DNA of 62,374 nt, counting the filler. It is 8 parts of 8 records of this genome, joined end to end, with 100 filler letters (N's around TTAATTAATTAA, not from the genome) between each part and the next. Parts side by side here need not be neighbours in the genome. Positions count along the whole stretch, not along the records: positions 1 to 14,362 come from SRR31147125_31007; 7 more parts are not named here. The stretch is one strand, 5' to 3'. Of this stretch, positions 1 to 24,596 are shown piece after piece. Position 1 is the first letter of the stretch. Every line of letters starts with the position of its first letter. The notes beneath the pieces were generated by a model, which did no database searches, was not told the origin of the DNA, and was given only the letters and a program-made list of their open reading frames with translations. The translations under genes and the position numbers were made by a program.

Positions 1-1434
1 AAAAGTTTCATAATACAACGTTGGTGAAATAGTATGGACAAGTTTTATACCAATTAAATTCGTATTTCGATTAATTATTGGATGAAAATATGGATAATAT
101 TCTTTAAAGCTTCCTCCATCATATGAAATAAGAGTTTCTGTACCCCACGCGGCATTTAGCCGCCCACCCGCGGCCGATGAAACCTCTGAGTAAAGGCCAT
201 TGACAGTTAATTTTAGATTCGGATTTATGTTATTTATAATTTTTAAAGATGTAATTTTTTCATCGTAATGATCAGTAGATTGAGGGTAATCCAATGGATG
301 ATATTCATATTTCCCTCCAAGCAGGAAATAAGTTTTCCATGGCATAAATGAAAACGGTCCTGATAAAGAAAAATCAATGTTATGCCCGTTTTTATTGCCA
401 TACTCCATCGGTCTATGACGCCATTTCCAAAGCTCATAGGCTTCCTGTGCGGTCAGATCATTGTCAGGATTTTCATCTGATAGTAAATTATCCGCAAATT
501 GATTCCAGCCCATCCATATCTTCTTTTCTTCATAAAGACCATCCGGTATAGATAATGTATCTCCTTCAAATGCTTTAGGTCCATCCAATAACCGCCATTC
601 CCAACGCCAATCTTTATCAAATTTATCACGACCATAATGAGGCTTATGGCTGGGTGTAAATTGGTAATCCACAGTAAACTGATAATTGCTGGAAGGATTC
701 TTTGTGATAATATTTATAATTCCGGAACGTGATTGTCCATATTCGGCGTTAAAGCCATTCCTCATAATTTTTATTTCCTGAATGGTACCAGGCTGAATTG
801 AGAATACGGGTCTGTTAAACTTTTTATCAACCATAGTCATTCCGTCAACTAAAAGCCCTACTTCCCTTGTATCTCCTTCCCGAATTTTTATTTTACCCTC
901 AATGATATTTCCACTTATACCGGATTGCAATCCAATAACGTTCTCTACGCGGTTTGCAAAAGGCGTATTTTGATACTCCTCGGCAGTCACATAGTTTTCT
1001 GTTGCGGATACATCAATCTGAATCTGGTCTCTGCTGGCTGTTACGAATATTTCATCAGCTTCTAACGAGGTTTCCTGAAGGGAAAAGTCAATAATAGTTG
1101 ATCTGTCAAGACTTACTTTTACGTACTGTTCAGTAAGTGAACTATAACCCATCATTCTGGCAGTGAGGGAATATAACCCGGGAGGTACTTTGAGTATAAT
1201 GAATTCACCATGAATATTTGTTGCTGCACCCAGTCCGCCATCAAAATCTCGTTCTGTGTTATTAATCCATACTTTAGAAAGAATAACGTTTACACCAGGT
1301 AAGGGGGCCCCACTATTGGAATCAACCACTTTGCCGCGTATTTTCCCGGTTACGCCGGCATGTAAAGGACAGATAAATAATATTATCTCACATATCAAAA
1401 TTAAGCAGATCAATAAAAAATTAAGCTTTCTCAT
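1..1434 (-). CDS. TonB-dependent receptor, N-terminal part (runs off the window edge; absent from the ORF track)
   Basis: Hand translation from ATG at 1434 gives MRKLNFLLICLILICEIILFICPLHAGVTGKIRGKVVDSNSGAPLPGVNVIL (signal peptide plus carboxypeptidase-regulatory-like domain), then the plug motif IQEIKIMRNGFNAEYGQSRSGIINIITK. The frame stays open to position 1. Confidence 0.9.
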   Translation of the reverse strand, partial: MRKLNFLLICLILICEIILFICPLHAGVTGKIRGKVVDSNSGAPLPGVNVILSKVWINNTERDFDGGLGAATNIHGEFIILKVPPGLYSLTARMMGYSSLTEQYVKVSLDRSTIIDFSLQETSLEADEIFVTASRDQIQIDVSATENYVTAEEYQNTPFANRVENVIGLQSGISGNIIEGKIKIREGDTREVGLLVDGMTMVDKKFNRPVFSIQPGTIQEIKIMRNGFNAEYGQSRSGIINIITKNPSSNYQFTVDYQFTPSHKPHYGRDKFDKDWRWEWRLLDGPKAFEGDTLSIPDGLYEEKKIWMGWNQFADNLLSDENPDNDLTAQEAYELWKWRHRPMEYGNKNGHNIDFSLSGPFSFMPWKTYFLLGGKYEYHPLDYPQSTDHYDEKITSLKIINNINPNLKLTVNGLYSEVSSAAGGRLNAAWGTETLISYDGGSFKEYYPYFHPIINRNTNLIGIKLVHTISPTLYYETF

Positions 1435-2423
1435 TTTACTGCCTTGTTAGTTATATGATTATTCTACTTGCATTTTCACAAAGAATTTGTAAATAAATTT
1501 ATTTGAGTTTTTGTCATGGATGCCTACCTTGTTTTAATAAAGAAATGAGGATCCATAACAAAACAAAAGTATACATCTAAAAGTAGAGTTTTTGCAGTTC
1601 CAGAGGAATTCCGGTCGTCATATGACGGAGCAGTCTGTTGTTGTCTTGGAGGTTTGAGCAAATTTCATTTTAACCACTTTTAGAAACAAACGATAGAAAA
1701 CAACAAATCAGTCTTTACAAAAGTTTCTAACGAATTGGATAAATATAATTTATCTTTAAAAAGTGAGTTGTCAAAAAGAATAACTTTTATTTTTTGTGCC
1801 AAGTATGATAGCTTATAAACTTAACCAGATGATACAGACAATTTGGGAAAAGCCTGGTTAATCTTTAAGAGACACTAAAATGTAATACTCATTATGGTTG
1901 GTGAATAAAATCGATTGGTTAAAATTGGACATTCATTTACAGTCATTCTATGTATTAAAATCAGCATCTAAAACAATAAAGCCTGGCTAAAAGTAATTTA
2001 AAATAATAACTGTAACAGAATAGCGAAAGATAAAGGGTGCGACGAAAAAAAAGATTAGAATCATAATGAAATGGTTTATCATATAATAGATCAACGTATC
2101 ATCTATATGAATCCACCAGTTGTGTAAATAGAAATTGAAAAAATAACAACAAGAAATAAAGGAAAATGTGCAATATAAATTAAATAATTATCCTTCACGG
2201 TCTCAAGAATCATATTGCCTTAAACTATCCAGATTGAATAAATCTTTAAAATTATTAGATTCTATCCTTTAAACTGAATTTATACTAAAAATGTAGCAAA
2301 GATAAAATTGCAAAGCAACCATTCATTAAAAAAAAAGCGAAATTTAATCAAAGTTTGTCAAGATCTTGTCCAATAATAATAGTTTTTGAATTCATCTGTC
2401 AAGATATAAATATACACTCATTC

Positions 2424-3977
2424 TTATAATCGTGTCACAGGGCTTTTTTTCACTTTTTTCAGCAACGCGGATAACTCTGTCACTTTATCAGGAAAATCAC
2501 CAGCCAGATTGGTTTGCTCACCTATGTCCTTGACCAGGTTATATAGCTGTGGTTGTGGATTGTTACCCAACTCAATATTAGTATTCGTGTTTATCCTGGA
2601 TCCGTTACCCGGTTCGATGTATTTCCAGCCATCTTTGATTATTGATAGAACGCCTGATGCAGAATGTTCGACTACATAGTCTCGATCCTTTTGAGATTTA
2701 CCGAAAAGAACCTCGAGTTTATTCATGCTGTCAGGGCCCGCATTTTCCGGCAATTTTTGACCGGACAAAGCTGCCAGCGAGGCCATGAGATCGATCTGAC
2801 TGAACAGCACGTGGGAAGTGTTTGGTGTTATGTGCTTTGGCCAGCGAACAATAAACGGAATACGAGTTCCTGCGTCAAAAGCGCTGTATTTCCCACCTCG
2901 CAATGGACCTGCCGGTTTGTGGTCCTGCAACAATTCAACGGATTGGTCGTGATATCCGTCATCGACAACCGGGCCATTATCGCTGGTAAGAATAACCAAT
3001 GTATTTTCCGAAAGATTTAGCTTATCCAATGACTCTAGCAATTCTCCGACACACCAGTCAAATTGCAGCGTGGCATCACCACGACCGCCCATCCCGCTTA
3101 CACCGGCAAAACGAGAATGTGGTACACGAGGGACATGGATATCATGAGTAGAAAAATATAAAAAAAACGGATTTTTCTGATTTTTTTCCAGAAACTGAAT
3201 GGCTTTGCTTGTAATCGTATCCGCCATATCTTCATCAATCCAGCGAGCAGATTTCCCTCCACTCATATAACCAATACGGCTGATGCCATTAATAATCGTC
3301 TGGTTATGTCCATGACTTGGGTGCATTTTAAGCAATTCCGGATGATCTTTTCCGGTCGGCTCGTCAAGGATGGGTTCTCTAAAACTGACTTTGATTGGAT
3401 CCGATGGATCGAGTCCAACCACTCTGCGGTTTTCAACATAAACGCAGGGTACCCGATCACCGGTTGCTGGTATCAGGAAAGAATAATCAAAACCAATATC
3501 CACCGGGCTTTGTGTTATTTCATTGTTCCAATCAGCCCCACTTTCAGGACCCAGGCCAAGATGCCACTTGCCAACAACACCGGTCGTATATCCGGCTTTT
3601 TGCAGAACCGATGGCAAGGTAACTCGTCCCGGTTTTATAATTGCCGGAGCATCACCCCGTGCAATTCCAGTCCCTTTCCTGCGCCATGCATACTCTCCGG
3701 TTAAGAGCGAATAACGGGATGGCGTACAGGTTGCTGAACTGCTATGTGCGTCAGTAAAACGCAATCCCTCTGCGGCGAGACGATCAACATTCGGTGTGTT
3801 TATTCTTTTTGCGCCATAACAACTCACATCACCATACCCCAGGTCATCTGCGTATATGAGTAAAATATTGGGACTGCGTTGTTGTTTTTTAGTACAGGAC
3901 AAAACACCGGAAAGAGTACCGGCTAATCCCAAACCTGCCAAACGAATAAAATCCCGTCGATTAACTTTTTCATTCAT
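2424..3977 (-). CDS. Arylsulfatase (formylglycine-dependent S1 sulfatase), Tat-exported, probable lipoprotein
   Basis: RRDFI twin-arginine motif, PNILLIYADDLGYGD, CTPSR signature, GKWHLG and SDNG. Confidence 0.95.
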   Translation of the reverse strand: MNEKVNRRDFIRLAGLGLAGTLSGVLSCTKKQQRSPNILLIYADDLGYGDVSCYGAKRINTPNVDRLAAEGLRFTDAHSSSATCTPSRYSLLTGEYAWRRKGTGIARGDAPAIIKPGRVTLPSVLQKAGYTTGVVGKWHLGLGPESGADWNNEITQSPVDIGFDYSFLIPATGDRVPCVYVENRRVVGLDPSDPIKVSFREPILDEPTGKDHPELLKMHPSHGHNQTIINGISRIGYMSGGKSARWIDEDMADTITSKAIQFLEKNQKNPFFLYFSTHDIHVPRVPHSRFAGVSGMGGRGDATLQFDWCVGELLESLDKLNLSENTLVILTSDNGPVVDDGYHDQSVELLQDHKPAGPLRGGKYSAFDAGTRIPFIVRWPKHITPNTSHVLFSQIDLMASLAALSGQKLPENAGPDSMNKLEVLFGKSQKDRDYVVEHSASGVLSIIKDGWKYIEPGNGSRINTNTNIELGNNPQPQLYNLVKDIGEQTNLAGDFPDKVTELSALLKKVKKSPVTRL

Positions 3978-4079
3978 GATTTATATCCCATGTTTTATTT
4001 GAACAATCCATTTATATGCTACATTAGCAATCAGTGGTGGTAATAATTCAATAAAAATAATAATGATTTCTCTACCAAA

Positions 4080-5030
4080 TCATTGACTAAAATCTTTTTT
4101 ATACTTTTGAACACAATGCTGGTAATGGTCTGTGATATACACACTGCCATCGGGAGCGATGGCTATGGCCAGGACGAACTGCTGGCTATCATCAGCCGGG
4201 CCACTGGTATTCCACGCAGTTTTAAATTTGCCTGCAGAATTGAAAACCTGAATACGAAAATTATACCGGTCGCACACAAACAAATCACCATTGGGTGCAA
4301 CAGTGATTCCATGCGGTTCGCTAAAATGACCGTCTGAGGCCTGAGCGCCCTCACCATAATTACCCCAGCGATTTATTAGTTGCCCTGATCGTGTAAATAT
4401 TGACAAACGATGATTCTGCCTGTCGCTCAATACAATATTTTGATTTTGATCAATAGTGATTTCATGTGGCATATAAAGTCTAAAGCCAATTTGCTCTTCA
4501 GAACCCCAACAATTTTGAAAATTCAAATCCCGGTCAAATATTTGAATACGATAATTAAACGCATCCACCACGTAGAGCACGTCATCGCTATCGATGACCA
4601 TTCCATAAGGATGTTTGAACTGACCTTTCTCTACCCCATAAACACCCGTTGCTTTCAGGAATTCACCTTTGGATGAAAATTTTTGTATCCGGTGATTATT
4701 CATATCTGAAACATAGACTTCACCATAGGAATTGATTGCGATTCCATAGGGATAATTAAATTGTCCGGGACCGTCACCCTGTTCTCCCCACATCTGGATG
4801 AAATTCCCTTTCGGACCGAACTTTTGGATGCGGTGATTATTTTGATCCACAACATAAATATTTGAGGACTGGTCGATAGCGAGCATAGTTGGATATTTGA
4901 ATTGTCCAGGCCTGTTGCCAAATCCTCCCCACTGATCTACCATGCGAAAATTGGATTGAGCAACAATAAAATCAAAATCACCCGCTAAAATTGCTAAAAC
5001 CACAGCAGTAATAAAAAGCAGCTTTTTCAT
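4080..5030 (-). CDS. Secreted NHL-repeat 6-bladed beta-propeller protein
   Basis: Signal peptide followed by six repeats of the type GQFxYPxGIAI...VYVxDxxNHRIQKF. Confidence 0.9.
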   Translation of the reverse strand: MKKLLFITAVVLAILAGDFDFIVAQSNFRMVDQWGGFGNRPGQFKYPTMLAIDQSSNIYVVDQNNHRIQKFGPKGNFIQMWGEQGDGPGQFNYPYGIAINSYGEVYVSDMNNHRIQKFSSKGEFLKATGVYGVEKGQFKHPYGMVIDSDDVLYVVDAFNYRIQIFDRDLNFQNCWGSEEQIGFRLYMPHEITIDQNQNIVLSDRQNHRLSIFTRSGQLINRWGNYGEGAQASDGHFSEPHGITVAPNGDLFVCDRYNFRIQVFNSAGKFKTAWNTSGPADDSQQFVLAIAIAPDGSVYITDHYQHCVQKYKKDFSQ

Positions 5031-5072
5031 TCTTATTGCCTTTTGTCATATAATATAGAGCTAAGATCAATT

Positions 5073-5963
5073 TTATTTAATATTATCAATGACTGTGATA
5101 AATTCTTCAACAACTTCTTTTGGCTGTACCTTGTTTCGATGTACGTAATTTTTACCATATCCTCCATTTTGACTGACATGTTTATCCAGCGCTTTATACT
5201 TGATATGGAGATAATCCCTCACATTAATTTGAACATCCGCTTTACCTCTCCCGGATTTCTGCGCATCCTCATCCAAGAGCCAGCCATTTACTGTCATCCA
5301 CAGTTTTCCCACAGGAACACTCAGGTCCATTGCTTTTTTGAAAGCCTGGTACATGATATAAGCACTGTTCCCATGATCATGTTTTTCTCCTCCCAATGTA
5401 TGCGTTATCACAATTTCAGGCTTGTATACCTCCAATAATTCATAAACCACATTAATCTCATCACTTAGCCGTGTGGCGACGCTGACGATTTGTCTTTTGG
5501 GCGGAGCAAAGTTATGAAACTCGTCAGAACCAATGTAGCATTGTTTCCGTCCCTGCCAGAACCAGGTTTCCCGAAAATCCAAAAATATGGGAATAGCGCC
5601 ATAAACCAAAGCGGCTTGTCGGGCTTCTTCAGCTCGTATCTGTATCGTTTCTAATGGACCGATGGGATATGTTTTAGGTGAATCTGAAACCGTAAATTTT
5701 CCACCATCTTTATCACCCGGTGCCCTTTCCAGCAAACAGCCAGCAGTGTTATTTGTTACGCATACGTAAACGCCTTGATACCCTTGAGCCATATATTTAG
5801 CTAATGTTCCACCCGCAATCTCGTCAACATCGTCTGCATGAGCGCCAAATACAAGTATACATTTATTTGGTTTGCGACTACTAAAAGCCAAATTTGATGC
5901 ACAACCCCAAAAAAGAAAAAACCATATAATACAACAATTGATCAGATAATTATAAAGGTTCAT
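5073..5963 (-). CDS. PIG-L/LmbE-family Zn-dependent de-N-acetylase, probably exported
   Basis: GAHADD metal motif, HDH motif and HVSQ near the C-terminus; hydrophobic N-terminus ending in WGC. Confidence 0.85.
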   Translation of the reverse strand: MNLYNYLINCCIIWFFLFWGCASNLAFSSRKPNKCILVFGAHADDVDEIAGGTLAKYMAQGYQGVYVCVTNNTAGCLLERAPGDKDGGKFTVSDSPKTYPIGPLETIQIRAEEARQAALVYGAIPIFLDFRETWFWQGRKQCYIGSDEFHNFAPPKRQIVSVATRLSDEINVVYELLEVYKPEIVITHTLGGEKHDHGNSAYIMYQAFKKAMDLSVPVGKLWMTVNGWLLDEDAQKSGRGKADVQINVRDYLHIKYKALDKHVSQNGGYGKNYVHRNKVQPKEVVEEFITVIDNIK

Positions 5964-6007
5964 AGTATCCTCTCAAGCTTTTAGTATCTAGCTAAAGTAT
6001 TTGGAAT

Positions 6008-6154
6008 TCAATTAGCATTGTGCCGATCATTGAGAACATTAAACATCTCTTTCAATTCAGCAACTGATTTAATTAATATTTTGCCGGACATATAAGAAAA
6101 CGAGATGATACAAAACAAAACAATGATTCCCCAGAATAGTGCCCATGCATTCAT
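6008..6154 (-). CDS. 48-aa single-TM small protein, putative symporter accessory subunit
   Basis: AAGGAGG ribosome site, and an ATG overlapping the symporter TGA (ATGA). Sequence MNAWALFWGIIVLFCIISFSYMSGKILIKSVAELKEMFNVLNDRHNAN. The track ORF 6008-6469 is an upstream over-extension. Confidence 0.75.
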   Translation of the reverse strand: MNAWALFWGIIVLFCIISFSYMSGKILIKSVAELKEMFNVLNDRHNAN

Positions 6155-7630
6155 TCGGCAACCTCCTTTACTTTTATTGGTCGTAGTATGTTCTGCAAAT
6201 AGGATCCGACAACCATGCCGATAAAAGCGAGCAAAAATCCGCCCCAGCCCATTTGCGACGCCCAGTTCGTTTTGAATTCCTCTGACAAAACCAAATATAA
6301 TATCGGTGGCAGCGCACCAAACGTAAATGCGAGATAGGCTCCGGCAGTTCGGGCTTTTTTCCAGTAAATGCCCAAAGCTATACTGACCAGCGTTCCGGGC
6401 AGAAATAACATTCCTGTCATTTGCAGGTAAAAGTACAAATATCCTTCCAACTCGTGAAACAGCGACCACCAGATAATAAATATCATCACAGAGGCAACCG
6501 TTATTCGGCTAATGAGTAATTGTTTTTTCGAACTCGTTTCCTTTCCCGTGATAAACTTGAATATAGTACCGATAATATCCTGCGAAACCACAGAACTCCA
6601 TGACAGCAAGTAGCTGGCATAAGTGGACATGGATGCTGCTAAAAGTCCGGCAAAGATTAATCCCAAAATGCCACTGGGTACAATTGCCTTAACCAGTAAA
6701 GGTAAAGCATCCAAACCATCGACCGGATCCGCAAAATAGGCAAATGCCATAATTCCCCAAAAAATAGGTAAAATCGCCCGCGACAGAAACATCAATCCCG
6801 ACCAGGTGTAAATTTTCATGCCGGTTTTAGAATCCTTTGAGGAAAACAATCGCATGGAAATAGACTGCCATGCAACAAGAACGGCTGTCCATATCAAAAG
6901 CTGCCATACCAAAAATCCAATCCCAAATTCCCCTTTAATATCGTCGGGAAAAAAGGATTGATTCCTTTTTCGCCTAGTTCCGAGACAACGGCATTGACGA
7001 TATTTCCCCAACCAATAACATACACTCCATAAACTGTTATAAAAATCATTCCAAAACTAAGGAGAGCATACTGCAGGTAATTGGTCAGAATAATAGAGAC
7101 CATACCACCTAACAATGTGTATATCAGTACCAACGTTAAAAGCACAACCATTGTAAGTAAAACATAATTTTCAGGAATTCCGGTTACAGTATTGATAAAT
7201 TTGGCCTCCACGCCAGGGAACACGCCAAAATTTAAAATTCCTCCAACCGCCATAAGGATACCCACATAAAACCGCACACCTTTGCTGAATTTTATGGAAT
7301 AGAATTCCGGATGGTCATGATTTTCATCTCTAACAAAGGCTTTATGATAAATCCCGTCTTGCCCAGGAAAAAGTAAACGATCATGGGTGGAAAAGCAATG
7401 ATTAGGCTTGCAAGACCCGCCTTGTAACCCAATTCTGCATAATATATATAGGTAATCATACCAATTTCAGTACACATCATGGATAGCAGGCCTAAATGAA
7501 ATCCCATGGTACGGTCTGCAACCAGAAAATCACCAATTCCTTTTATATATCTCTTAACAAGAGTACCTGAATAAAAAATCATTAGCAAATAAATGATTAC
7601 AATCCCGATATCGAAATAACTAAAATTCAT
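6151..7630 (-). CDS. Sodium:solute symporter (SSS) family transporter, split by two 1-bp frameshifts
   Basis: Three consecutive ORFs (7292-7630, 6894-7277, 6151-7011) join into one SSS protein (DFLVADR, MTI[P]EF, YTLLGGM, GLLAASMST) if one base is restored at ~7309 and one at ~6946-6954. Confidence 0.85.
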
Positions 7631-7700
7631 GAATCATCCTTTCATCACTTCTGTCGATGAGCAGCCTGGATTCTCTCATTAATGGAATATATTTATGCGA

Positions 7701-8651
7701 TTACAGCTTTATTTTCTCTTCATACTTTTCGACAATTTCACGAATATCATGGGTGAAATCTGTCCAAATATGTTCCCATTCTTTCTCTTTTCCTTCTTCA
7801 TAATGATAAAATTTTGTATCGCTATCTACCTTCTCCTGCATTAGTTTTGGGAGTTCTGTAGAATTGCACAGATCTGGAAATAGCCCTTCCATGACTTTTG
7901 CATAGATCGGCAATCCGGTTAAATCCATCCAGCGAAATGGTCCGAAAAGCGTCGCCCACCAACCGATATCATTGCGAAAGGACCGGTCGACTGTTTCAAT
8001 ATCAGCCACACCAATCTCCACCAAATGTATCGCCTCCCGCATCATTGCATACATTAGCCGGTTGGAAATCAATCCGGCAATATCATAATTTAATACAGTC
8101 GGCTTTTTCCCACATCTTTCACCTATTTTACAGGTAATTTCAACAAACCTGTCATCTGTATCTTTTGCACGGGAGATTTCAAGATAATGCGTAATTTCTG
8201 CCGGCTCAGCCCAGTGCATCCCGATAAATCTTTTTTTATGTGTCAATTGTTCCTGAAGAAGGGAAAGAGATATTCCGGACGTATTACTGGCAATAACAGC
8301 CTCTCTATCTATTACGGACTCGAGGATCTTGTAGATATTCCTTTTTAATTCCAGGCTCTCCCCTACAGTCTCGATTATGAAAGGACATTCCTTCAAGTCC
8401 TGCAGAGAACTAACATATTGAAAGCGTTCCTGCCACCCCGTTGACTCAGACTCCTGAATGATTCCCCGTGACAACAGCTTTTCCAGACTGTTGGCAATAT
8501 GAGCTAGTGCCTCCTGCTCACGGGCCGCCGTTCTACTGTATGCAATAACATTAAAACCGCTGGCAATCAGGCAGCTGCAAATTCCCTGCCCCATCAAACC
8601 CAATCCCACCAATCCGATTGTGTTCATTTCTTGACGACTGTTGTTGACCAT
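7701..8651 (-). CDS. 3-hydroxyacyl-CoA dehydrogenase family NAD-dependent oxidoreductase
   Basis: GLGLMG Rossmann motif, IETVGE, ASNTS, GMHWAEP, SNRL and GPFRWMDLTGL. Confidence 0.85.
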   Translation of the reverse strand: MVNNSRQEMNTIGLVGLGLMGQGICSCLIASGFNVIAYSRTAAREQEALAHIANSLEKLLSRGIIQESESTGWQERFQYVSSLQDLKECPFIIETVGESLELKRNIYKILESVIDREAVIASNTSGISLSLLQEQLTHKKRFIGMHWAEPAEITHYLEISRAKDTDDRFVEITCKIGERCGKKPTVLNYDIAGLISNRLMYAMMREAIHLVEIGVADIETVDRSFRNDIGWWATLFGPFRWMDLTGLPIYAKVMEGLFPDLCNSTELPKLMQEKVDSDTKFYHYEEGKEKEWEHIWTDFTHDIREIVEKYEEKIKL

Positions 8652-8665
8652 GTTTAAACTCCAGG

Positions 8666-9118
8666 TTATTCTTCGATTAAACTAATTTTCACCTTTTTAA
8701 CACCGGTAATGCGGGTATTGGCGGACGCTTTATAAAACGCGGTCGCGTCTCCTTCAATACGGGCAAAGATATTGACAAGAACCGGACCCTCAGCCATACT
8801 CGGTCGGCTGTCCCGATCGTAGAACCAGCAAATTTCAGATACATCGTCATCAAGACCATAGTGATCGTCACGATTAAGCCAGATATAAGCCACATCCCCG
8901 GTTTGCACAGCGCAGGTCGCTTTTTCTCTGCCAATTTTGATCTCCGTTGAAAGCAACATGGCGACCTCGCTGCCTGAATAGCGTGCATGAGTCGCATCAG
9001 ATTCAAGGGATAAATGTTTTAAAAGTTCATTGCAGGTACGAGGCATCTCTTCTTCAAGCAGCCGTGCACGTGCTACTATATTTTGTTCAATAAATCGCAG
9101 TTCAATAAATTTTGCCAT
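8666..9118 (-). CDS. DUF3830-like (cyclophilin-like fold) protein
   Basis: ARLLEEEMPRTC, HARYSGSEV, GDV and EICWFY resemble DUF3830. GGAGGA lies upstream of ATG 9118. Confidence 0.65.
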   Translation of the reverse strand: MAKFIELRFIEQNIVARARLLEEEMPRTCNELLKHLSLESDATHARYSGSEVAMLLSTEIKIGREKATCAVQTGDVAYIWLNRDDHYGLDDDVSEICWFYDRDSRPSMAEGPVLVNIFARIEGDATAFYKASANTRITGVKKVKISLIEE

Positions 9119-9138
9119 TCTTCCTCCAACAATCAGGT

Positions 9139-10236
9139 TTATTCCAGACATCCCCGGCCTTCAATGGGCCATACATCACTTATCTTATTATTTTGGCTTA
9201 TCCACATGTGTGAATAAAGATTATTTGTGGTACACCCATGCGGTGGGATGAGCCGTATCTTGTCTCCAATTAGCACATCCAAATTCCGAATGACAGTATG
9301 TTCTTCAGCAACATACAGCACGTCGGCATCCGGATGGCCAACAACCTCAGGTTTTGCGTATTCAGCGCCCATGCCTTTTAATCCTACATCCGTAGTGACT
9401 GTATTCCCTCTTTTTGAAATGACAGTAGTCAGTATAAATCGGGCATATTTAAATTCCGGACGTATCTTTTTATAAGCAGAATCCATCAACGCATAACTCC
9501 CGCATTGCAGTTCATCAATCCCGTCGATATTGCTGGTAATGTCATAAGTGCCGGTGCCTCCGGATGATACGATAACCGAAAAACCTTTATACTCAAGCAT
9601 CCGTTTTGTTTTCAGCAAGGGCTCCATCGCTTCTGTTACACGCCGCTTTCGTTCCTTATAATCCTCCAGTGTTACGATATGCCCCTCATAGCTTTGCAGT
9701 CCATCAAAGCAAAGCCCCGGTATTTTTGAAACGAAATCAGCAAGATTTAAGGTTGGTTCTCCCGGCAGCACACCACCCCGGTTCATACCAATATCCACTT
9801 CAACAAAGACTCCAACTGTGACTCCGAATTCCTGAGCAGCAACACTCAGTTCTTCAATTCCCTGACGGGAATCTACGGCCACTCGAACAGTTGCCTGTTG
9901 GTTCAAAAAAGCAATCCTTTTCGCTTTGACTGCACCGATCACCTGATTGGCAATCAAAACATCTTTTATTCCACCGGCAACAAGCTGTTCAGCTTCGGAA
10001 AGCTTGGCACACGTTATACCAACGGTATTCTCACAAGCCATTTGCCTCCGGGCGAGTGTAACACATTTATGAGATTTAAAGTGAGGGCGCAAGTTGCAAG
10101 GTCTGCCTTGAAAATATTCGGATAACAATGTCAAATTTTTCTCTATTGCCTCTACATCGGCAACAATAACAGGTGTGGGGAGTTGCACAATAGTTTTGCC
10201 GATCCATTCCTTAGCCAGAATTTCTTCATTTTTCAT
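9139..10236 (-). CDS. D-threonine aldolase/DSD1-family fold-type III PLP enzyme
   Basis: LPTP, LRPHFKSHK (PLP lysine), EVDIGMNRGG, YEGH, SGGTGT, EEH and HGC metal ligands. The ATG overlaps the ALDH stop. Confidence 0.92.
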   Translation of the reverse strand: MKNEEILAKEWIGKTIVQLPTPVIVADVEAIEKNLTLLSEYFQGRPCNLRPHFKSHKCVTLARRQMACENTVGITCAKLSEAEQLVAGGIKDVLIANQVIGAVKAKRIAFLNQQATVRVAVDSRQGIEELSVAAQEFGVTVGVFVEVDIGMNRGGVLPGEPTLNLADFVSKIPGLCFDGLQSYEGHIVTLEDYKERKRRVTEAMEPLLKTKRMLEYKGFSVIVSSGGTGTYDITSNIDGIDELQCGSYALMDSAYKKIRPEFKYARFILTTVISKRGNTVTTDVGLKGMGAEYAKPEVVGHPDADVLYVAEEHTVIRNLDVLIGDKIRLIPPHGCTTNNLYSHMWISQNNKISDVWPIEGRGCLE

Positions 10237-11711
10237 AAACTCCACCCCACCGGTGCCTGATCATCATATGCCACGACAGCGCTCTTTTGCACACAATATT
10301 TGAGTAATCCCTCCATCCCCAGTTCAACACCGGTCCCGCTCATTTTGTGCGGAGGTACAGGTATCTGGGGATAGCCATCGAGCATACAATTGACCCAAAG
10401 GATACCTGTTTGCAGCGCCTTAATCATGCGCAGTGCCAGAGCCCCGTCTTTTGTCCACACCGAACCTGACAAACCATACATAACCTCATTGGAAATGTGC
10501 ACTGCATCAGCTTCATTTTCAAATGTCAGGATACTCAGAACTGGACCAAAAATTTCCTCGGTTGCGACTTTCATTCCAGGTTGAACGTTGGTCAGCAAGG
10601 TCGGCTCAAGCCAGAATCCGCGAGAAAGTGGTTTTGCCATTTCGAGCCGTTTCCCGCCTGCCAGAATCGTACAGCCATCGCCCGGCGCTTCTTTAAGATA
10701 TTTTTGAGCGATGTTATATTGAGATTGGGTCATCATAGGTCCAACCAACGTATCAACATCCTGCGGATCACCAACTTTTACTTTTGTCAGCTTTGCTTTT
10801 AAAATGGATTCAAATTCCACAGCGACAGATTTCTCTACCAACAAACGTGAACATGACACGCATAACTGACCGGCATTAACAAATGCACTTATAATCACTG
10901 CGTCTGCGGCTTTTTCAAGATCAGCATCGGCAAAAACGATAATGGCATTTTTTCCTCCAAGTTCCAGATTGACAGCTTTCATTTGATCTGCAGCCTGTTT
11001 TTGAATACGTTGTCCCACGGACGTAGAGCCTGTAAACGATATCTTCTTCACATCAGGGTGCTGTATGAGACGTTGTCCAGTAGTGGAACCTGGTCCAAGT
11101 GCGACATTAACAATCCCCGGTGGTATGCCTGCTTCCAGGCATAATCTGGCAAATGCGACACAGGACAAGGGTGTTTCCACTGATGGCTTTACAACGATCG
11201 AATTCCCGGCAGCCAGGGCTGGAGCAACTTTCATGGCAGCATTAACCAAAGGATAATTCCAGGGCAGGATCCCTGCAACCACACCATAGGGCTCATATGT
11301 GGTTAAATGTAAGGCGCCCCCGGATATTGATTTTACACGTCCTTCAATTTTATCTGCAGCACCCGCATAAAATCGGATGATGGCTGCTGTTAACGGAATC
11401 TCGCCACCCGTTAGTTGTGAAATAGGTTTTCCCGTATCCATCAGTTCAAGCGAAACAAGTTCTTCAGATTTTGTTTCCACCAGATCAGCTAATTTTAGCA
11501 GACGAATGCCCCTGTCAGCCGGGGACATGTTTTGCCATTCTGCCGAAAGATAGGCTTGCTTGCTGGATGCAACGATCCGGTCAACACATTCGGCATCGCA
11601 ACATGCTTCTTCAGCACACACCTGACCGTTAGCTGGATTCATAACTTTAAAAATGTCCTCTCCGGCAGAACTTACTTCTTCCCCGTTTACAATGGGTCCA
11701 ACTTTTAACAT
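10233..11711 (-). CDS. NAD(P)-dependent aldehyde dehydrogenase
   Basis: PWNYP, KPS, FTGST, ELGGK (catalytic Glu), NAGQLC (catalytic Cys) and EEIFGP. An alternative GTG start lies at 11723. Confidence 0.95.
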   Translation of the reverse strand: MLKVGPIVNGEEVSSAGEDIFKVMNPANGQVCAEEACCDAECVDRIVASSKQAYLSAEWQNMSPADRGIRLLKLADLVETKSEELVSLELMDTGKPISQLTGGEIPLTAAIIRFYAGAADKIEGRVKSISGGALHLTTYEPYGVVAGILPWNYPLVNAAMKVAPALAAGNSIVVKPSVETPLSCVAFARLCLEAGIPPGIVNVALGPGSTTGQRLIQHPDVKKISFTGSTSVGQRIQKQAADQMKAVNLELGGKNAIIVFADADLEKAADAVIISAFVNAGQLCVSCSRLLVEKSVAVEFESILKAKLTKVKVGDPQDVDTLVGPMMTQSQYNIAQKYLKEAPGDGCTILAGGKRLEMAKPLSRGFWLEPTLLTNVQPGMKVATEEIFGPVLSILTFENEADAVHISNEVMYGLSGSVWTKDGALALRMIKALQTGILWVNCMLDGYPQIPVPPHKMSGTGVELGMEGLLKYCVQKSAVVAYDDQAPVGWSL

Positions 11712-11772
11712 TTGAGACCTCACGATTAATATTCACTCATTGCTTTTGAATTTTAATTTCACCCGAAATTAT

Positions 11773-12903
11773 TCAAGCAGTCAAAAAAATCTTTCTCCTG
11801 TACATCCAATAAAGAATGAGCCACTCCACAACCAGTACAGCTACCGCTTTAAAAAGATCTCCAAATGGACCCATTTGCAGAGCAATTCCGCCTGTAAAAA
11901 TACCAAGAATTTTTCCAAGTGGCACAATGGTGCGGCCCATATAAACCGCCAGCGCATTCATTCCAATAACAACAAAAGGGAATGCCCATTTCCGAAAACC
12001 ATGGACATCAATAATAAAATAAAAAAGAAGAAACAAGAGGCATGACCAGCCCATGCTCGCCAGCCCGTAGGAAGTTGTCCACAGTTTCATAATGATCGGA
12101 ACGATCGGGTCAAGCAGTGTTCCTGTTAGCACACAACAAAATCCGACCAGGCCAATTATCACACATTTCTTTTTTTGCGATAATTGGCTTTTTAATAGTT
12201 TGCCAATTATCAGCCCCAAGATTGTTGTGGAGATTGTTGGAATTGTACTCAAAACAGTACCCCAGCCGTCGGCGTGTGTTCGTCCCAGAACGAGAACGTC
12301 TACGTACGCAACTAAATTGTGACCCATTTTAAATGTCCCTGCGGGTATATCAGGGGCAGAAATAAATGCCAGAATAAGGGCATAGAAAAAGAGAATCAAA
12401 ATTGCTGTTACAGCCTGAAAACGCCATGTTCTGCGAACAAGCAAGAAAGCAACGAGATAGGCAATAGCAATAGGTTGGAGTGCACTGCTTAGTTCAATCA
12501 GATAAGGATGATTTAGGTTAATCGATTCTCTCAGTGAACCAAGAAGGAAAAGTATAGCAAAACGTCTCAAAACACGTATAAATATGTGAGAATATGCCAG
12601 AGTCTGTATGCGCTTTGCATAGGAAAATGGAAGAGACATACCTGTCATGAGCATAAACGATGGCCAGATAATGTCGTAATATCGCAATCCTTGCCAGGAT
12701 GTATGGTCGAGGTGATAAATAATAAAATTAATAACCGGATTGTCTCCGAATGCCTGGAATCCGAGCATAAGAGATCCGCCGCCCACAATCCAGAACATGG
12801 TCCAGCCCCGAAATGCATCCAGAGAAACAAGTCGCTTTGAGACTTGTTGAGGCTGTGATTCCATATTTATCGCGGAAATAATTGAGCTATTTGTTTTTGA
12901 CAT
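11773..12903 (-). CDS. NagX/DUF5009 (heparan-alpha-glucosaminide N-acetyltransferase-like) membrane protein
   Basis: RLVSLDAFRG, DIIWPSF, KLWTTSY, GMNA and YRRKIF motifs; many TM helices. Confidence 0.85.
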   Translation of the reverse strand: MSKTNSSIISAINMESQPQQVSKRLVSLDAFRGWTMFWIVGGGSLMLGFQAFGDNPVINFIIYHLDHTSWQGLRYYDIIWPSFMLMTGMSLPFSYAKRIQTLAYSHIFIRVLRRFAILFLLGSLRESINLNHPYLIELSSALQPIAIAYLVAFLLVRRTWRFQAVTAILILFFYALILAFISAPDIPAGTFKMGHNLVAYVDVLVLGRTHADGWGTVLSTIPTISTTILGLIIGKLLKSQLSQKKKCVIIGLVGFCCVLTGTLLDPIVPIIMKLWTTSYGLASMGWSCLLFLLFYFIIDVHGFRKWAFPFVVIGMNALAVYMGRTIVPLGKILGIFTGGIALQMGPFGDLFKAVAVLVVEWLILYWMYRRKIFLTA

Positions 12904-13601
12904 TAGTACATCTCCGAATTTTCATTTGAGAGTTGTTACTAAGTCAGCTTACCAGTCCTATTATATTGAAAAATGGACTTTTCGAATTTTAAATAACCTG
13001 ATAAAATTTCAATCGAATTCAATCCTGTTTCTGGGGGAATAAACAGGTTCAATGGATTACCAATACAGCTTCATCCGAAAAACGATGTATATGTATGATA
13101 ATCATGGCTCCAATGCCAAATCATGTGGGTTTGGCTGGCTGTCCAAAATCGTTTCAAACTCTATTCCTACATATCTGCAAGTTTATCTTGTGGTATTTTT
13201 CAGGCAACTGTACCAATCACTTAATTTTATCCGGTTTAAAATATTAATAAATTTTAAATATCTCAATTGTAATTTGTATAAAATTGGTTTTTTTACCATT
13301 TCTCTTATGAAAATTATATCTGCTTTTTTGCAGCAGTATTCCATTTATTTATAATTATCAAGCGGTAAAATTAGTATTAAAAACTTTTCCAGAGTAAATT
13401 AATTAATGTAATGGTTACAAGCTGTCTGTTCTAAATCTCAAGATATACTCAAGAAAAATACATTTACATGTTTAAAAAAATTCAAAAAGTATTATTATCA
13501 ACAACCTATTATTAATAAATAACGTGAAACTTTTGTGCAATAAATTTAATAGCCAATGTACTTATTACCAGGTGTATTCGATTCTCTCTTGCCGTAAATA
13601 G

Positions 13602-13631
13602 AAAAAGCCCAAAAACAATTTTGGGCTTTTT
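13602..13631. terminator. Rho-independent terminator, bidirectional form
   Basis: AAAAAGCCCAAAA-acaa-TTTTGGGCTTTTT just downstream of 13660-14217. Confidence 0.8.
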
Positions 13632-13659
13632 AAGGTTCATTTACAAAATGTAGTAAATA

Positions 13660-14217
13660 TCAGGATATCTCACCAAAAGAACGAATAAACAAGTCCTCTA
13701 TCGCCTTTTTACCTTCAGGTTCCAGGTTACGGGTGCCTGTTACAGCAATGGATTTATGACAAATAACCGGCTCATCAGTTTTCCAGGCGTTATCAATCCA
13801 TGAAACCCATTCTTTTCTTTCCTGATCGAATACATGGATAGGCCTGTTAAACAGCTTTGCCAGCTCTACGCCCCAACCGGTCCCACCTTTAATCGTATTA
13901 TTGGAAAGTAACTGACCCACTGCAAATATCTGATAGCCGCTATTAATGATATGAAAAATAGTTTGAAAAACACGTTTCATTGTATCCGTTTGTGCAAATG
14001 TCCGTTCCATGTGTTTATTGATAATGGCTAAACTCACATTACCCAAATTGAGCTCATCTTCAGATAAAAGTTTTAATCCCCGATCTCTTTTAATAGTATG
14101 TCCATCAAAATTATAAGTGACTTCACTCAAGCCCCATTTTTCACTGCACATACCAAAATAATCCTCAGTCCCGCGATGTCCACCTGTATACAAGGTTACA
14201 TCTGCTGATTTTAACAT
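13660..14217 (-). CDS. SLOG-superfamily (cpYpsA/MoCo-carrier-like) putative nucleotide-binding protein
   Basis: N-terminal TGGxxGxE, central GGTGW..ELAK...RP and C-terminal VTGTR, in the circularly permuted SLOG order. AGGAG ribosome site. Confidence 0.55.
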   Translation of the reverse strand: MLKSADVTLYTGGHRGTEDYFGMCSEKWGLSEVTYNFDGHTIKRDRGLKLLSEDELNLGNVSLAIINKHMERTFAQTDTMKRVFQTIFHIINSGYQIFAVGQLLSNNTIKGGTGWGVELAKLFNRPIHVFDQERKEWVSWIDNAWKTDEPVICHKSIAVTGTRNLEPEGKKAIEDLFIRSFGEIS

Positions 14218-14362
14218 AATTTCTCCTTATAATATAAAGTTTTTCTAATCGAACCCATAAAATCATAAAAATTATAACTTTTAATTTAATAACATTTATT
14301 TTAATATTCAAGCTTTTAATATTTATTTCTTTTCACTCTTGTCCAAAATAAATGTTTTGTAA

Positions 14363-14462
14363 NNNNNNNNNNNNNNNNNNNNNNNNNNNNNNNNNNNNNN
14401 NNNNNNTTAATTAATTAANNNNNNNNNNNNNNNNNNNNNNNNNNNNNNNNNNNNNNNNNNNN
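14363..14462. other. Artificial contig linker
   Basis: N44-TTAATTAATTAA-N44, with stops in all six frames. Confidence 0.99.
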
Positions 14463-15866
14463 CCCCCAATACTCCAGGAAATGAGCCTGCGGTAAATGCC
14501 AGTTTGATAATCTGGATGTTTCGTCATAATATAAGCTGAGATGTAACGAATTGGATACTGATTTCAAGGCGCCTTTAAAATCAAGATCTGAAGGAGTGTT
14601 ATAAACAGGATTTCCTCCCAGTATAGCCAATGTTTGGACAGCTCCATTTTTCATATCCTTTATAAGGTCTGCCAAATCAGCGGATCTGGTATATTTACTA
14701 TCCTTTGGTTCTCTAAAGTTCACTGTCTTGCCGACATTGCCCAGAGCAGAATTCAAAGAAACAACAAGGCCCTGCAATGCTACTGGTTGTCCCCTACCAG
14801 CTATAATTAAACATTTACCCTGGTTTTTCAATAAATCTTTTGCGACCGCTTTTAACCATTTTTCATCAACTTTAAAATCATTGTACTGTGATAGAACCTC
14901 TTTTGATACCCTGATATTTAAACCCATATTCAAAAGTTCGAGAGCTAATCGGCCAGTCCAGGCACCAACGAGTCTACTTTGTAATCGCAAACGATGATCA
15001 GCCATTGAACCGGTAACGGAAAACTGACTCTCTACGACATACAAACGATTCATAACATCTTTAGTACCTTGAACTCTTCTTCCAGCAGAAAAGCCAAGTG
15101 CATTTGAGATACTTTCTGCCTCTGTATGTAAAAAATCAGAGTCCAGAGAAAGAATAACATGTGCTTTCTCCAAATGAACTGTAGGCACATAATCCTTACC
15201 AGTCGCCAACTCAATTCCAGTGTTGATATTTTCATCACTTATTGGTTCATAGGTTACCCATTTTGCATTGGGAAAAGTGGATTTGAACCTGTCTGCTAAT
15301 CTTGCCAATGTTGGAGAAGAAAACGATTCGGATAAGATTGCCAGGCCCTTTCCATTGTTTTCTAAAAATGTGGGATAGAGCTGCCGCCAGTCGTTCAGGA
15401 AATCTGCCCATTGCTTCTCCATATTTTGATACATAATACTTTTGGATCGATCCGGATCATAAAGTCCAAGAATAGAAGCTTGCAGAATACTGTTTGTTGC
15501 TCCACTGGAAGATGGGTGATGTTCATTTCCTTCGATCTTTATCGGGCGACCTTCATGGCTTTTAACCACAATACCATAAGCATTTGTACCTAACGGCATT
15601 GTCGAAGCGTAATGCAACGGGATTCCGGGTATGATTTCTTCAGGCGGGATTACATATGGGATTATTTTTTCAACAGGTTTACGGCATGCTGTCAAACCAG
15701 CGAGAGCCATAGATGCACCCATAAGAGTCATAAATTTTCGGCGGGACATGGCATCACCCCAGACCGAAGCACTTTCAGGAAACTCTCTGTGCAAAAAGTC
15801 CTGAAATTCAGTCGTATTTTCTAATTGATCAATACTACGCCAGTATTGTTTATCATTTTTGATCAT
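14463..15866 (-). CDS. actB: Alternative complex III subunit ActB (molybdopterin-oxidoreductase-like), truncated by the contig end
   Basis: YWRS..L, REF and SRRKFM Tat-variant leader, EGRPIKIEGN and LYDPDRS. Directly follows actA. Confidence 0.9.
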
Positions 15867-15872
15867 AGTTCC

Positions 15873-16520
15873 TTACCTGTGACAAGATGAACAATCTTCG
15901 GGAGGATCGATATTTTTTTCCGATTTGAATTGGGCCACAAATTCTGCGTGATTTCCTAAAGGTTTCCATTTCATATTTGTCAGCTCACTTAGCGGACGAA
16001 TGTGACTATCAGGATTTCTATGACAATCAAGGCACCAGCCCATACTTAATGGCTGCTTTTGCATGACAACGTCCATCTCTGCGACGTTTCCATGACATTC
16101 TACACATCCAATGCCGCCATTCAAATGAACGCTATGATTGAAATAGGCATAATCTGGCAAATCATGTACTCGGATCCATTCGATAGGTTTACCTGTTGAC
16201 CAACTTTCCCGCAAAGGTAATAGTTTTTCACTTTCAGGTAAAATCAATTTATGACAATTCATGCACGTCTGTGTTGGAGGTATATTTGCATATGCAGAAA
16301 TTTCAACTGCATCATGGCAATAACGACAATCCAGCCCCAAATCACCAGCATGTAGTTTGTGACTATATGCAATAGGCTGCTTTGGCCGATAACCAACATC
16401 TGTATATTTTGGTGATCCATAATACCAGAAAAATGCGATAATGGATAATAAAAGGAAAAGAACGCCGCCTGCGACGTAAATGGGGATCTTGTTCGTCCAT
16501 TGTGGAAAAAGCTGAGCCAA
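15873..16520 (-). CDS. actA: Alternative complex III pentaheme cytochrome c ActA
   Basis: One TM helix and five CxxCH motifs (CRYCH, CMNCH, CVECH, CLDCH, CSSCH), plus QPIAYSH and LSMGWC. TTG start. Confidence 0.92.
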   Translation of the reverse strand: MAQLFPQWTNKIPIYVAGGVLFLLLSIIAFFWYYGSPKYTDVGYRPKQPIAYSHKLHAGDLGLDCRYCHDAVEISAYANIPPTQTCMNCHKLILPESEKLLPLRESWSTGKPIEWIRVHDLPDYAYFNHSVHLNGGIGCVECHGNVAEMDVVMQKQPLSMGWCLDCHRNPDSHIRPLSELTNMKWKPLGNHAEFVAQFKSEKNIDPPEDCSSCHR

Positions 16521-24582: not shown

Positions 24583-24596
24583 TTAATAAATAGATT

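Follow-up and report, generated by a model that had tools for sequence, protein, structure and literature searches.

A widely recurring DUF3830 gene cassette with a candidate role in the catabolism of amino-sugar acids

Introduction

Amino sugars form a large organic nitrogen pool in sediments and soils and, outside Proteobacteria, little is known of the routes for galactosamine (GalN), N-acetylgalactosamine (GalNAc) and amino sugars in oxidised form. The closest described system is the ong cluster of Pseudoalteromonas prydzensis ACAM 620, in which TonB receptors import oxidised chito-oligosaccharides, the GH20 enzyme OngA splits them, the sodium:solute symporter (SSS) OngIT takes up 2-acetamido-2-deoxygluconate (GlcNAc1A) and the D-aminoacylase OngB deacetylates it (PMC9537276). 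OngC, a pyridoxal phosphate (PLP) enzyme of a separate fold-type-III clade, converts 2-amino-2-deoxygluconate (GlcN1A) into 2-keto-3-deoxygluconate (KDG) and ammonia and has D-Ser and D-Thr as further substrates; the KDG is then phosphorylated by KdgK, and a RidA protein is indispensable. The cluster is reported from Gammaproteobacteria and one Betaproteobacterium only (PMC9537276). Here we describe a ten-gene cluster on the minus strand of a 62,374-nucleotide stretch of DNA (the window, made of eight parts from eight records of one genome joined with filler, of which positions 1 to 14,362 come from SRR31147125_31007), in which a DUF3830 protein is encoded together with an aldehyde dehydrogenase (ALDH), a PLP enzyme and a dehydrogenase of the 3-hydroxyacyl-CoA dehydrogenase (3HCDH) type.

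Two further groups of enzymes bear on this cluster. The non-phosphorylating L-fucose/L-rhamnose route employs short-chain dehydrogenases and a FAH-family hydrolase. NAD-dependent 4-dehydrogenation of 2-keto-3-deoxy sugar acids is reported for non-phosphorylating pathways (PMC11199699). Among fold-type-III PLP enzymes, the D-threonine aldolase AxDTA is reported to have His347 and Asp349 as its manganese ligands, whereas chicken D-serine dehydratase and 3LLX have His and Cys as metal ligands and no counterpart of His193 (PMC4401734).

Results

The ten-gene co-directional cluster is real. As the original prediction had read it, ten open reading frames (ORFs), all on the minus strand, lie head to tail from 12903 to 2424 with the coordinates it gave, and the intergenic gaps, in gene order, are 49, −13, 20, 14, 70, −4, 44, 42 and 102 nt. 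Both of the ATGA overlaps it had counted were read in the window, one between the symporter stop and a 48-aa ORF, the other at the −13 overlap of the ALDH and PLP genes, provided that translation of the latter begins at Met4 (fourth codon). The cluster is a mosaic of a widely recurring core and local flanking genes. The core consists of a NAD(P)-dependent ALDH (11723..10233; Pfam Aldedh, 514 bits), a fold-type-III PLP enzyme of the D-threonine aldolase/D-serine dehydratase family (10245..9139; Ala_racemase_N and D-ser_dehydrat), DUF3830 (PF12903, 74.6 bits vs. a cut-off of 26), a 3HCDH-like NAD dehydrogenase (8651..7701; 3HCDH_N 148 bits and 3HCDH 49 bits) and an SSS (7630..6151; SSF matches on three ORFs). 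The DUF3830 ORF is open from 9151 to 8666, its likely start being Met12 (9118), which agrees with the orthologues, has GGAGGA in front and is presupposed by the gap of 20 nt.

Recurrence of the core was followed in genomes and metagenomes. A scan of one genome per species with a DUF3830 protein gave 37 loci, 26 of which carry a DUF3830 68–87% identical to that of the window; the labels of these 26, which here as elsewhere are those of the deposited metagenome-assembled genomes (MAGs), are Calditrichia, Bacteroidota, Neomarinimicrobiota, Chlorobiota, Planctomycetota, Glassbacteria, Verrucomicrobiia, Lentisphaerae, Gemmatimonadales, Chloroflexia and, once, 'archaeon'. From the metagenome scan, made with the dehydrogenase, the best 80 of 180 relatives were kept. 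In total 117 loci were tallied by tblastn with all window proteins, so that the counts depend on the tblastn thresholds, and 54 of them have a DUF3830 at least 60% identical, corresponding to 48 distinct loci after merging of DNA at least 98.5% identical. The core cassette is found in these 48 distinct loci, whose labels name at least ten phyla. The dehydrogenase gene follows within 400 nt after DUF3830 in 42 of the 42 loci with 1 kb of downstream DNA, and the ALDH and PLP genes stand upstream in 20 of the 25 with 4.2 kb of upstream DNA, the five exceptions being L013, L015, L017 and L024, which lack both genes, and L022, which has the PLP gene but no ALDH. Seven of the 48 have an orthologous symporter. 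Identities to the window proteins reach 64–77% for ALDH, 55–74% for the PLP enzyme, 68–88% for DUF3830 and 44–76% for the dehydrogenase; the closest locus is L039 and, among genomes, the closest cassette is that of a MAG labelled Calditrichia (G001).

The NagX, PIG-L, NHL and sulfatase genes of the window, sought at 50% identity or more, were found in none of the 48 distinct loci. The neighbourhood analysis that the original prediction had called for thus sustains a conserved, uncharacterised gene set for ALDH, PLP enzyme, DUF3830 and 3HCDH-like dehydrogenase, often with the SSS, but not for the four flanking genes, and the ten genes do not form one conserved unit. Since the core arrangement recurs in 48 distinct loci and the flanking genes do not, it is more than chance. 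On a short metagenome contig (L053, 468–2011) the dehydrogenase comes straight after an ALDH orthologue, neither the PLP gene nor DUF3830 separating the two. Eleven loci with a 40–46% identical DUF3830 were also inspected (61 of 93 picked ORFs Pfam-scanned), with largely uninformative annotation, ORF picks in their high-GC DNA lying on the wrong strand. The window DUF3830 had no match in plasmids by tblastn. A distant DUF3830 query led to two plasmids whose settings are not comparable (DUF3830 22% and ALDH 36% identity): one of Deinococcus psychrotolerans (L118, 7965–8426), with DUF3830 after two M24 peptidases, a class-V aminotransferase and an FAD oxidoreductase, and one of Rhizobium (L119, 7953–8462), with DUF3830 between acetoin-dehydrogenase-like E1/E2 plus a SorC regulator and an ABC transporter plus an ALDH.

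When the window was compared with ong, a TonB receptor, an SSS importer and an N-deacetylase were found in common, at family level only, and the likeness of the PLP enzyme to OngC is one of fold family (PMC9537276). The original prediction had stated that no pathway with this gene set was described; in concept this is wrong, because ong already joins these four functions, and for the same reason the idea of a 2-amino-aldonate handled as a D-amino acid is not new (PMC9537276). GH20 OngA, Amidohydro_3 OngB, RidA OngD, KdgK and an RpiR regulator belong to ong and not to the window: KDG kinase, RidA, GH20 and RpiR were absent from the 17 scanned ORFs of 1–18942, and Amidohydro_3 of the OngB type from the scanned ORFs of 1–20000, where PIG-L is found instead. 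Conversely, ALDH, DUF3830, the 3HCDH-like dehydrogenase, an exported PIG-L, NHL and sulfatase are in the window and not in ong, and the cassette occurs in the Fibrobacteres–Chlorobi–Bacteroidetes (FCB), Planctomycetes–Verrucomicrobia–Chlamydiae (PVC) and other phyla, in contrast to the proteobacterial ong. The ALDH/DUF3830/dehydrogenase part that replaces the KDG kinase is undescribed; literature searches on glucosaminate ammonia-lyase/dehydratase and on galactosaminate found nothing relevant. The cluster contains no kinase gene, CoA ligase or thiolase, in agreement with what had been predicted for the first two.

For the PLP enzyme, a two-domain fold with PLP lysine was confirmed by Pfam domains above cut-off and by an aligned lysine motif (HFKSHKC, against HAKAHKC in the aldolases). 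Its best overall matches (E 1e-54 to 3e-65) are in the same two-domain fold family, BhcC (6qkb, 3.4e-65) coming first, followed by D-Thr aldolases (1e-54 to 1e-56; 4v15 and 7dib among these structures), but it scores below the BhcC equivalog NF045642 (267.8 bits vs. a cut-off of 690). Overall similarity to 3llx (5.5e-21), to D-threo-3-hydroxyaspartate dehydratase (1e-19) and to the zinc-dependent chicken D-serine dehydratase 3anu (1.9e-13) is much lower. The active site tells a different story. All 12 sequences (window plus orthologues) share an invariant metal motif, PPHGCTTNN (His/Cys), whose His-Gly-Cys aligns with the aldolase His-x-Asp metal site, and Thr stands in place of AxDTA His193 in all 12, whereas all four solved aldolases have His. 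Thus, the aldolases combine a His/Asp metal site with the proposed base His193 and the window enzyme combines His/Cys with Thr, 3anu and 3llx resembling it in their His-x-Cys and lack of His193. As far as its sequence can tell, the PLP enzyme belongs to the aldolase clade but has an active site like that of a dehydratase.

The ALDH reached no NCBIfam equivalog cut-off. Models for alpha-ketoglutaric semialdehyde/2,5-dioxovalerate dehydrogenase were matched with E 1e-101 to 1e-104, below their cut-offs, and betaine-aldehyde and other models scored better. In related loci, the gene immediately before the PLP gene encodes an ALDH orthologue 64–77% identical, and the 13-nt overlap of the two genes is found also in L002.

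Among 27 DUF3830 sequences, reaching down to 40% identity, 27 residues are invariant, including H44, S48-G-S-E51, E65, E95, W98-F-Y-D101 and D103. The AlphaFold 2 (AF2) model (predicted local distance difference test, pLDDT, 89) has a cyclophilin-like fold and matches 3kop with Z 21.0 and an rmsd of 2.3 over 147 residues, the cyclophilin-like domains of the Pictet-Spenglerases McbB and KslB with Z 16–17, and ordinary cyclophilins with Z of about 11. McbB and KslB bind an amino acid plus a keto acid or aldehyde; they are about 290–310 residues long and only 8–16% identical to DUF3830, so that the likeness is one of fold only. The model suggests that DUF3830 may be an enzyme or a ligand-binding protein and not a prolyl isomerase. 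A full-text literature search found no paper naming DUF3830, PF12903, IPR024532 or 3KOP, and the ESM Atlas returned DUF3830 clusters only.

The best Protein Data Bank match of the dehydrogenase is 4om8, a non-CoA enzyme (7.6e-41), and lambda-crystallin (3ado and 3f3s) and carnitine dehydrogenases are also among its matches; no NCBIfam equivalog cut-off was reached. S125, H146, E158 and N197, which we take to be the catalytic residues of the 3HCDH family, are invariant in 20 of 20 orthologues. This 3HCDH-like enzyme probably acts on a free acid.

In the window, the symporter is broken into three frames (7630..7292, 7277..6894 and 7011..6151). A public sequencing run (X1) contains 0.97 of the sampled words of 5900–7750 and may have supplied the DNA of the window, and its contig (23,555 letters, depth 31) is identical except for two extra letters, behind 6929 and 7308 (+ strand), of which the one at 7308 is also present in a 151-letter contig of the unrelated estuary run X2. 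Runs X2 and X3 gave partial coverage at depth 2–6 and X6 gave none; X2 was used for the 7308 insertion only. Because one base is missing in each of two homopolymers, the split is an assembly fault, and the window thus carries assembly indels. With both letters restored, a single 493-aa frame without stops is obtained, 385/493 residues of which are identical to the uninterrupted L005 symporter. The symporter is therefore intact in the organism, and its reading as a pseudogene is ruled out by the X1 contig carrying both bases; a second frameshift located in the T6C3 run was likewise discarded, as the contig puts the break in the G run 6930–6933. Similar splits occur in the ALDH, PLP or dehydrogenase genes in the loci of three long-read MAGs (L001, L007 and L037). 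The 48-aa hydrophobic ORF behind the symporter (6154..6008), a possible small subunit, matches no Pfam family and has relatives behind the symporter in 4 of the 48 loci by tblastn.

The genomic company of the cassette was analysed in 19 related loci, from which 246 crude ORF picks were made and 125 and then 100 Pfam-scanned, the 21 left out being known core genes or overlapping frames. A cytoplasmic M20 amidohydrolase (TIGR01891, N-acyl-amino-acid amidohydrolase, 317 bits vs. a cut-off of 153.75) comes directly after the dehydrogenase in 12 of 29 loci. Across the 48 loci, an exported alpha/beta hydrolase lies between the PLP gene and DUF3830 in ten, an exported DUF5107-TPR protein is encoded in nine, a CE4 deacetylase and an MtaA/CmuA-like URO-D protein in five each, an EamA transporter in four, and a DegT aminotransferase with a second symporter and a GFO/IDH/MocA oxidoreductase in two. 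The wider surroundings contain GH20, GH123, GH3, GH2, GH38, GH10, GH16, GH4 and sialidase-like BNR_2 proteins as well as heparinase II/III, alginate lyase, SusD, sulfatases and FGE-sulfatase. In L005, L007, L011 and L059/L073, the MtaA/CmuA-like gene stands between the DUF5107-TPR gene and an importer or the ALDH, and L009 has an MttB-family gene nearby; these neighbours might point to a substrate that is methylated.

A sister clade of the dehydrogenase was found in 52 metagenome loci, where it is 44–57% identical and has no DUF3830 beside it, an absence that is meaningful in 36 of the 52 (at least 600 nt of upstream DNA; not de-duplicated). In a FastTree phylogeny of 93 full-length dehydrogenases, shorter or interrupted ones being left out, one split (support 0.94) placed all 46 DUF3830-linked sequences on the same side together with six others, four of which have less than 200 nt of upstream DNA. 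For 14 sister loci, 64 of 101 picked ORFs were scanned and the families then mapped by tblastn. An EamA transporter comes after the sister dehydrogenase in 19 of 30 loci, this family being common to sister clusters and DUF3830 cassettes (53–63% identity). The 20 sister loci of at least 6 kb encode Amidohydro_3 (D-aminoacylase-like) in 14, RidA in 13, a class-III aminotransferase in 11, GFO/IDH/MocA in nine, a ceramidase-like amidase in nine, GH20 in eight, FAH in seven and an RraA-like aldolase in two. The FAH protein matches many FAH enzymes, including L-2,4-diketo-3-deoxyrhamnonate hydrolase (8gsr), and the RraA-like protein matches 4-hydroxy-2-oxoacid aldolase/oxaloacetate decarboxylase. 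With glycoside hydrolases and N-deacylases among the neighbours of both cassette and sister clade, the amino-sugar or glycan context put forward in the original prediction was upheld.

Nine of the sister loci (L090, L092, L098, L103, L105, L106, L107, L111 and L112) share a high-GC soil/peat cluster, in which one strand carries FAH, class-III aminotransferase, GFO/IDH/MocA, ceramidase-like amidase and RidA genes and the facing strand the 3HCDH-like dehydrogenase and EamA, then Amidohydro_3, a second aminotransferase and a TonB receptor. This cluster appears to be uncharacterised.

The local genes that flank the core could form a front end. The first gene of the cluster (12903..11773) encodes a NagX-like polytopic membrane protein related to HGSNAT/NagX-type acetyltransferases; with 211 bits on NF046061 (E 2e-62, cut-off 480) it is a relative and not an equivalog, and no Pfam family was matched at E ≤ 0.01. 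Pfam and NCBIfam otherwise bore out the families originally named, but DUF5009 was not matched and NagX stayed below its cut-off. In G001, a NagX orthologue 70% identical lies on a contig other than that of the cassette, in a locus (L120, G001:C7:370500-389500) with two SGSH_C-type sulfatases, GH123, beta-helix proteins and an interrupting IS110-family transposase. NagX relatives also adjoin the 3HCDH-like dehydrogenase in L072 and L078.

Behind the core, the cluster continues with a divergent PIG-L/LmbE-family de-N-acetylase with an N-terminal hydrophobic leader (5963..5073; PF02585, 53.9 bits vs. a cut-off of 28.2). Only its residues 22–68, the N-terminal motif, match solved LmbE proteins; the metagenome scan gave no relative, and the best match in the five cassette genomes searched is 30% identical. 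An exported six-bladed NHL beta-propeller follows (5030..4080; Pfam NHL, five repeats), with an SGL lactonase-like region (36.3 bits vs. a cut-off of 26.3) and a signal-peptide-like N-terminus, and then a Tat-exported formylglycine sulfatase (3977..2424; Pfam Sulfatase, CTPSR motif, RRDFIRLAG twin-arginine leader). Because these three proteins carry export signals (hydrophobic, signal-like or twin-arginine leaders, read from the translations with no predictor), they would act outside the cytoplasm, whereas no N-terminal leader was seen in the translations of ALDH, PLP enzyme, DUF3830 and dehydrogenase. The sulfatase gave full-length matches to 7oze (4.7e-194), 6s20, annotated as N-acetylgalactosamine-6-O-sulfatase (1.3e-192), and 9bas/9bau, annotated S1_15A/B (1e-160 to 1e-164); over the S1_15 structures 6s20, 9bas, 9bau, 7oze and 7p26, full-length similarity spans E 1e-160 to 5e-194 and the CTPSR formylglycine motif is common. 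By these matches it is close to subfamily S1_15 and predicted to be of GalNAc-6-O-sulfatase type, in keeping with the sulfated amino sugar that had been foreseen. Given this S1_15-like sulfatase and the company of the G001 NagX orthologue (sulfatases and GH123), the cassette has in this genome been joined to genes for a sulfated N-acetylhexosamine (HexNAc) glycan.

Discussion

From gene content, conservation, neighbourhoods, the intact symporter and the active-site motifs we infer a substrate and a series of reactions. Probably, the core, in which the 48-aa ORF is counted with the symporter, is a horizontally spread cytoplasmic cassette for a 2-amino-2-deoxy sugar acid, chemically a beta-hydroxy-D-alpha-amino acid. 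The front end (NagX-like protein, PIG-L, NHL, sulfatase and the nearby TonB receptor) would be specific to this genome and would prepare a sulfated HexNAc glycan, most likely one bearing 6-O-sulfo-GalNAc. With a little less than even confidence, we favour an ATP-independent catabolism of amino-sugar acids with a deaminating PLP step, fed by this front end. The amino sugar would be freed, desulfated and de-N-acetylated in the periplasm and taken up by the symporter; ALDH would oxidise C1 to give a 2-amino-aldonate, from which the PLP enzyme would remove water and ammonia to yield a 2-keto-3-deoxy-hexonate, as OngC does on 2-amino-2-deoxygluconate. The 3HCDH-like enzyme would then oxidise the 4-hydroxyl, and DUF3830 would cleave or otherwise resolve the reactive product to pyruvate and a three-carbon acid, these last two steps standing in for the KDG kinase step of ong.

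The assignment of the dehydrogenase as a 2-keto-3-deoxy acid 4-dehydrogenase and of DUF3830 as the resolver of its diketo product is speculative, and we consider it more probably wrong than right. It is put forward because of the analogy with the fucose/rhamnose route, the FAH and RraA neighbours in the sister clade and the invariable adjacency of the two genes; the common logic proposed is NAD oxidation of a 2-keto-3-deoxy acid followed by ATP-free C–C cleavage (PMC11199699), with a 3HCDH-family protein and DUF3830 in place of the enzymes of that route. RidA adjoins the sister dehydrogenase where DUF3830 stands in the cassette, so an imine- or enamine-resolving role of DUF3830 may also be considered. 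Held with equally low credence is the wider proposal that DUF3830 and its 3HCDH-like partner could be a new ATP-free two-enzyme module that takes a 2-keto-3-deoxy sugar acid to central metabolites, this acid having arisen from an amino-sugar acid through a dehydratase-type member of the D-threonine aldolase clade. If so, DUF3830 would be a new C–C cleaving, decarboxylating or imine-resolving enzyme family on a cyclophilin-like fold, and the cassette an oxidative route for hexosamines, transferred widely among bacteria of sediments and digesters that lack the classical GalNAc/GlcNAc routes. As it stands, the cassette gives DUF3830 a defined context, with an invariable partner, two enzymes encoded alongside and a handful of candidate substrates; it brings to view a branch of the D-threonine aldolase family with an active site shifted towards the dehydratase pattern, and a second, equally uncharacterised soil gene cluster around the sister dehydrogenase.

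Several points weigh against the deaminating scheme. ALDH-family enzymes seldom oxidise hemiacetal sugars. The full-length PLP enzyme scores 224 bits with BhcC and 189 with AxDTA but only 74 with D-threo-3-hydroxyaspartate dehydratase and 54 with chicken D-serine dehydratase, and its C-terminal domain alone is also closer to the aldolases (50 and 40 bits vs. 13.8). Importers of the EamA and OngIT types suggest that the imported compound is an acid and not a neutral sugar, which would leave ALDH without its proposed role, and PIG-L and M20 are not simple equivalents because PIG-L is exported and M20 cytoplasmic. Four loci labelled as Planctomycetes have the DUF3830/dehydrogenase pair with no ALDH or PLP gene nearby, and distant DUF3830 genes are found in non-sugar settings in Deinococcus and Rhizobium. 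KDPG/KHG-aldolase family genes are present elsewhere in the four of four cassette genomes searched, so there is room for a kinase route for KDG.

Part of this evidence would suit a route in which an N-acetyl-hexosaminate or hexosaminate is imported and deacylated, and the PLP enzyme cleaves C2–C3 to give glycine and an aldotetrose; ALDH would then form the tetronate, the 3HCDH-like enzyme would oxidise its 3-hydroxyl, and DUF3830 would decarboxylate the beta-keto acid to dihydroxyacetone. Every gene would have a family-typical reaction. The nearest characterised relatives of the PLP enzyme are all aldolases, the 13-nt ALDH/PLP overlap of the window and L002 fits the hand-over of an aldehyde, the M20 aminoacylase suits an N-acyl amino acid, importers of acid type are present, oxidisers of free beta-hydroxy acids (3ado, 3f3s and the carnitine dehydrogenases) are among the dehydrogenase matches, and the 42/42 adjacency with DUF3830 would suit an unstable beta-keto acid. 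The active site, however, has His/Cys and not His/Asp ligands and lacks His193 in all 12 orthologues, the sister clusters have the dehydrogenase without ALDH and without this PLP enzyme, and decarboxylase activity is not known for the DUF3830 fold; we therefore regard the aldolase route as rather unlikely. Another candidate substrate is a 2-amino-2-deoxy-hexuronic acid from bacterial or archaeal envelope polymers, which would be oxidised to an amino-aldarate, deaminated and dehydrated by the PLP enzyme to 5-keto-4-deoxyglucarate, and converted by DUF3830 to 2,5-dioxopentanoate and by ALDH to 2-oxoglutarate, in parallel to the oxidative uronate pathway. BhcC, nearest to the PLP enzyme among solved structures, has a beta-hydroxy amino diacid as its substrate. 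This, the semialdehyde dehydrogenase models matched by ALDH below their cut-offs, the acid importers and a galactarate/altronate-dehydratase fragment near two sister loci would fit, but ALDH does better on betaine-aldehyde and other models, a uronate-specific gene was seen in no cassette locus and the front end of the window points to GalNAc-6-sulfate, all of which makes an amino-uronate very improbable.

A role outside sugar metabolism would have the cassette degrade a small beta-hydroxy-D-amino acid or N-acyl amino acid (D-Thr, D-Ser or 3-hydroxy-D-aspartate) or products of cell-wall or lipid turnover, being merely parked in glycan loci. D-Thr, D-Ser and hydroxyaspartate are substrates of characterised PLP family members, as N-acyl amino acids are of M20 amidohydrolases, and the distant Deinococcus DUF3830 lies beside peptidases and amino-acid enzymes. 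OngC itself is reported to deaminate D-Ser and D-Thr (PMC9537276). Yet breakdown of D-Ser or D-Thr needs no ALDH, dehydrogenase and DUF3830, unrelated lineages as well as the sister clade show the glycan setting, and identities of 55–88% across phyla argue for one specific, widespread substrate, so that we consider such a role quite improbable. The core and its NagX, PIG-L, NHL and sulfatase neighbours could also have met by chance insertion and serve different substrates, as the absence of the accessory genes from all 48 related loci and the separate contig of the G001 NagX orthologue would allow. A promoter-like match (11/12) just ahead of PIG-L points the same way, but weakly, since the promoter/terminator scan was at background (54 sites vs. 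43 expected). Against such a chance association, which we rate as the least probable of these explanations, stand the co-directional genes with gaps of 42–102 nt, the lack of any convincing terminator within the ten-gene cluster, the NagX relatives next to 3HCDH-like genes in L072 and L078, and the presence of the cassette in HexNAc-glycan loci elsewhere too.

Other features of the window

The TonB-dependent receptor that the original prediction had placed after the cluster is present (1434..1, minus strand; N-terminal part with CarboxypepD_reg and Plug, running off the window), but lies 989 nt off. The spacer between it and the sulfatase (1435..2423) is AT-rich (GC 0.33–0.37), non-coding and devoid of any ORF longer than 45 aa, so the receptor is probably a separate transcription unit. 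No Rfam family was found in 1–20000. Upstream of the cluster and on the same strand, a QrcB-like TAT-variant molybdopterin oxidoreductase and a multihaem cytochrome c are encoded (14415–16520), and a 185-aa ORF (13660–14217) matched no family.

Elsewhere in the window, two adjacent minus-strand ORFs of 1081 and 1028 aa (47827–54322) have no Pfam match at E ≤ 1e-6. Genes for lysine fermentation are found at 29507–33199, encoding a radical SAM enzyme that resembles lysine-2,3-aminomutase and both subunits (alpha and B12-binding beta) of D-lysine 5,6-aminomutase. At 20055–25864, a SusC-like TonB receptor is read in two overlapping ORFs (Plug 20055–21611, barrel 21529–22977), followed by SusD (23002–24582) and a GH78 rhamnosidase that is open for its N-terminal 372 aa only; the split receptor and the GH78 gene are probably further indel errors of the same assembly. 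RNase Y (60066–61229) is open for 387 aa only and ends within the HD domain, which may be another assembly indel.

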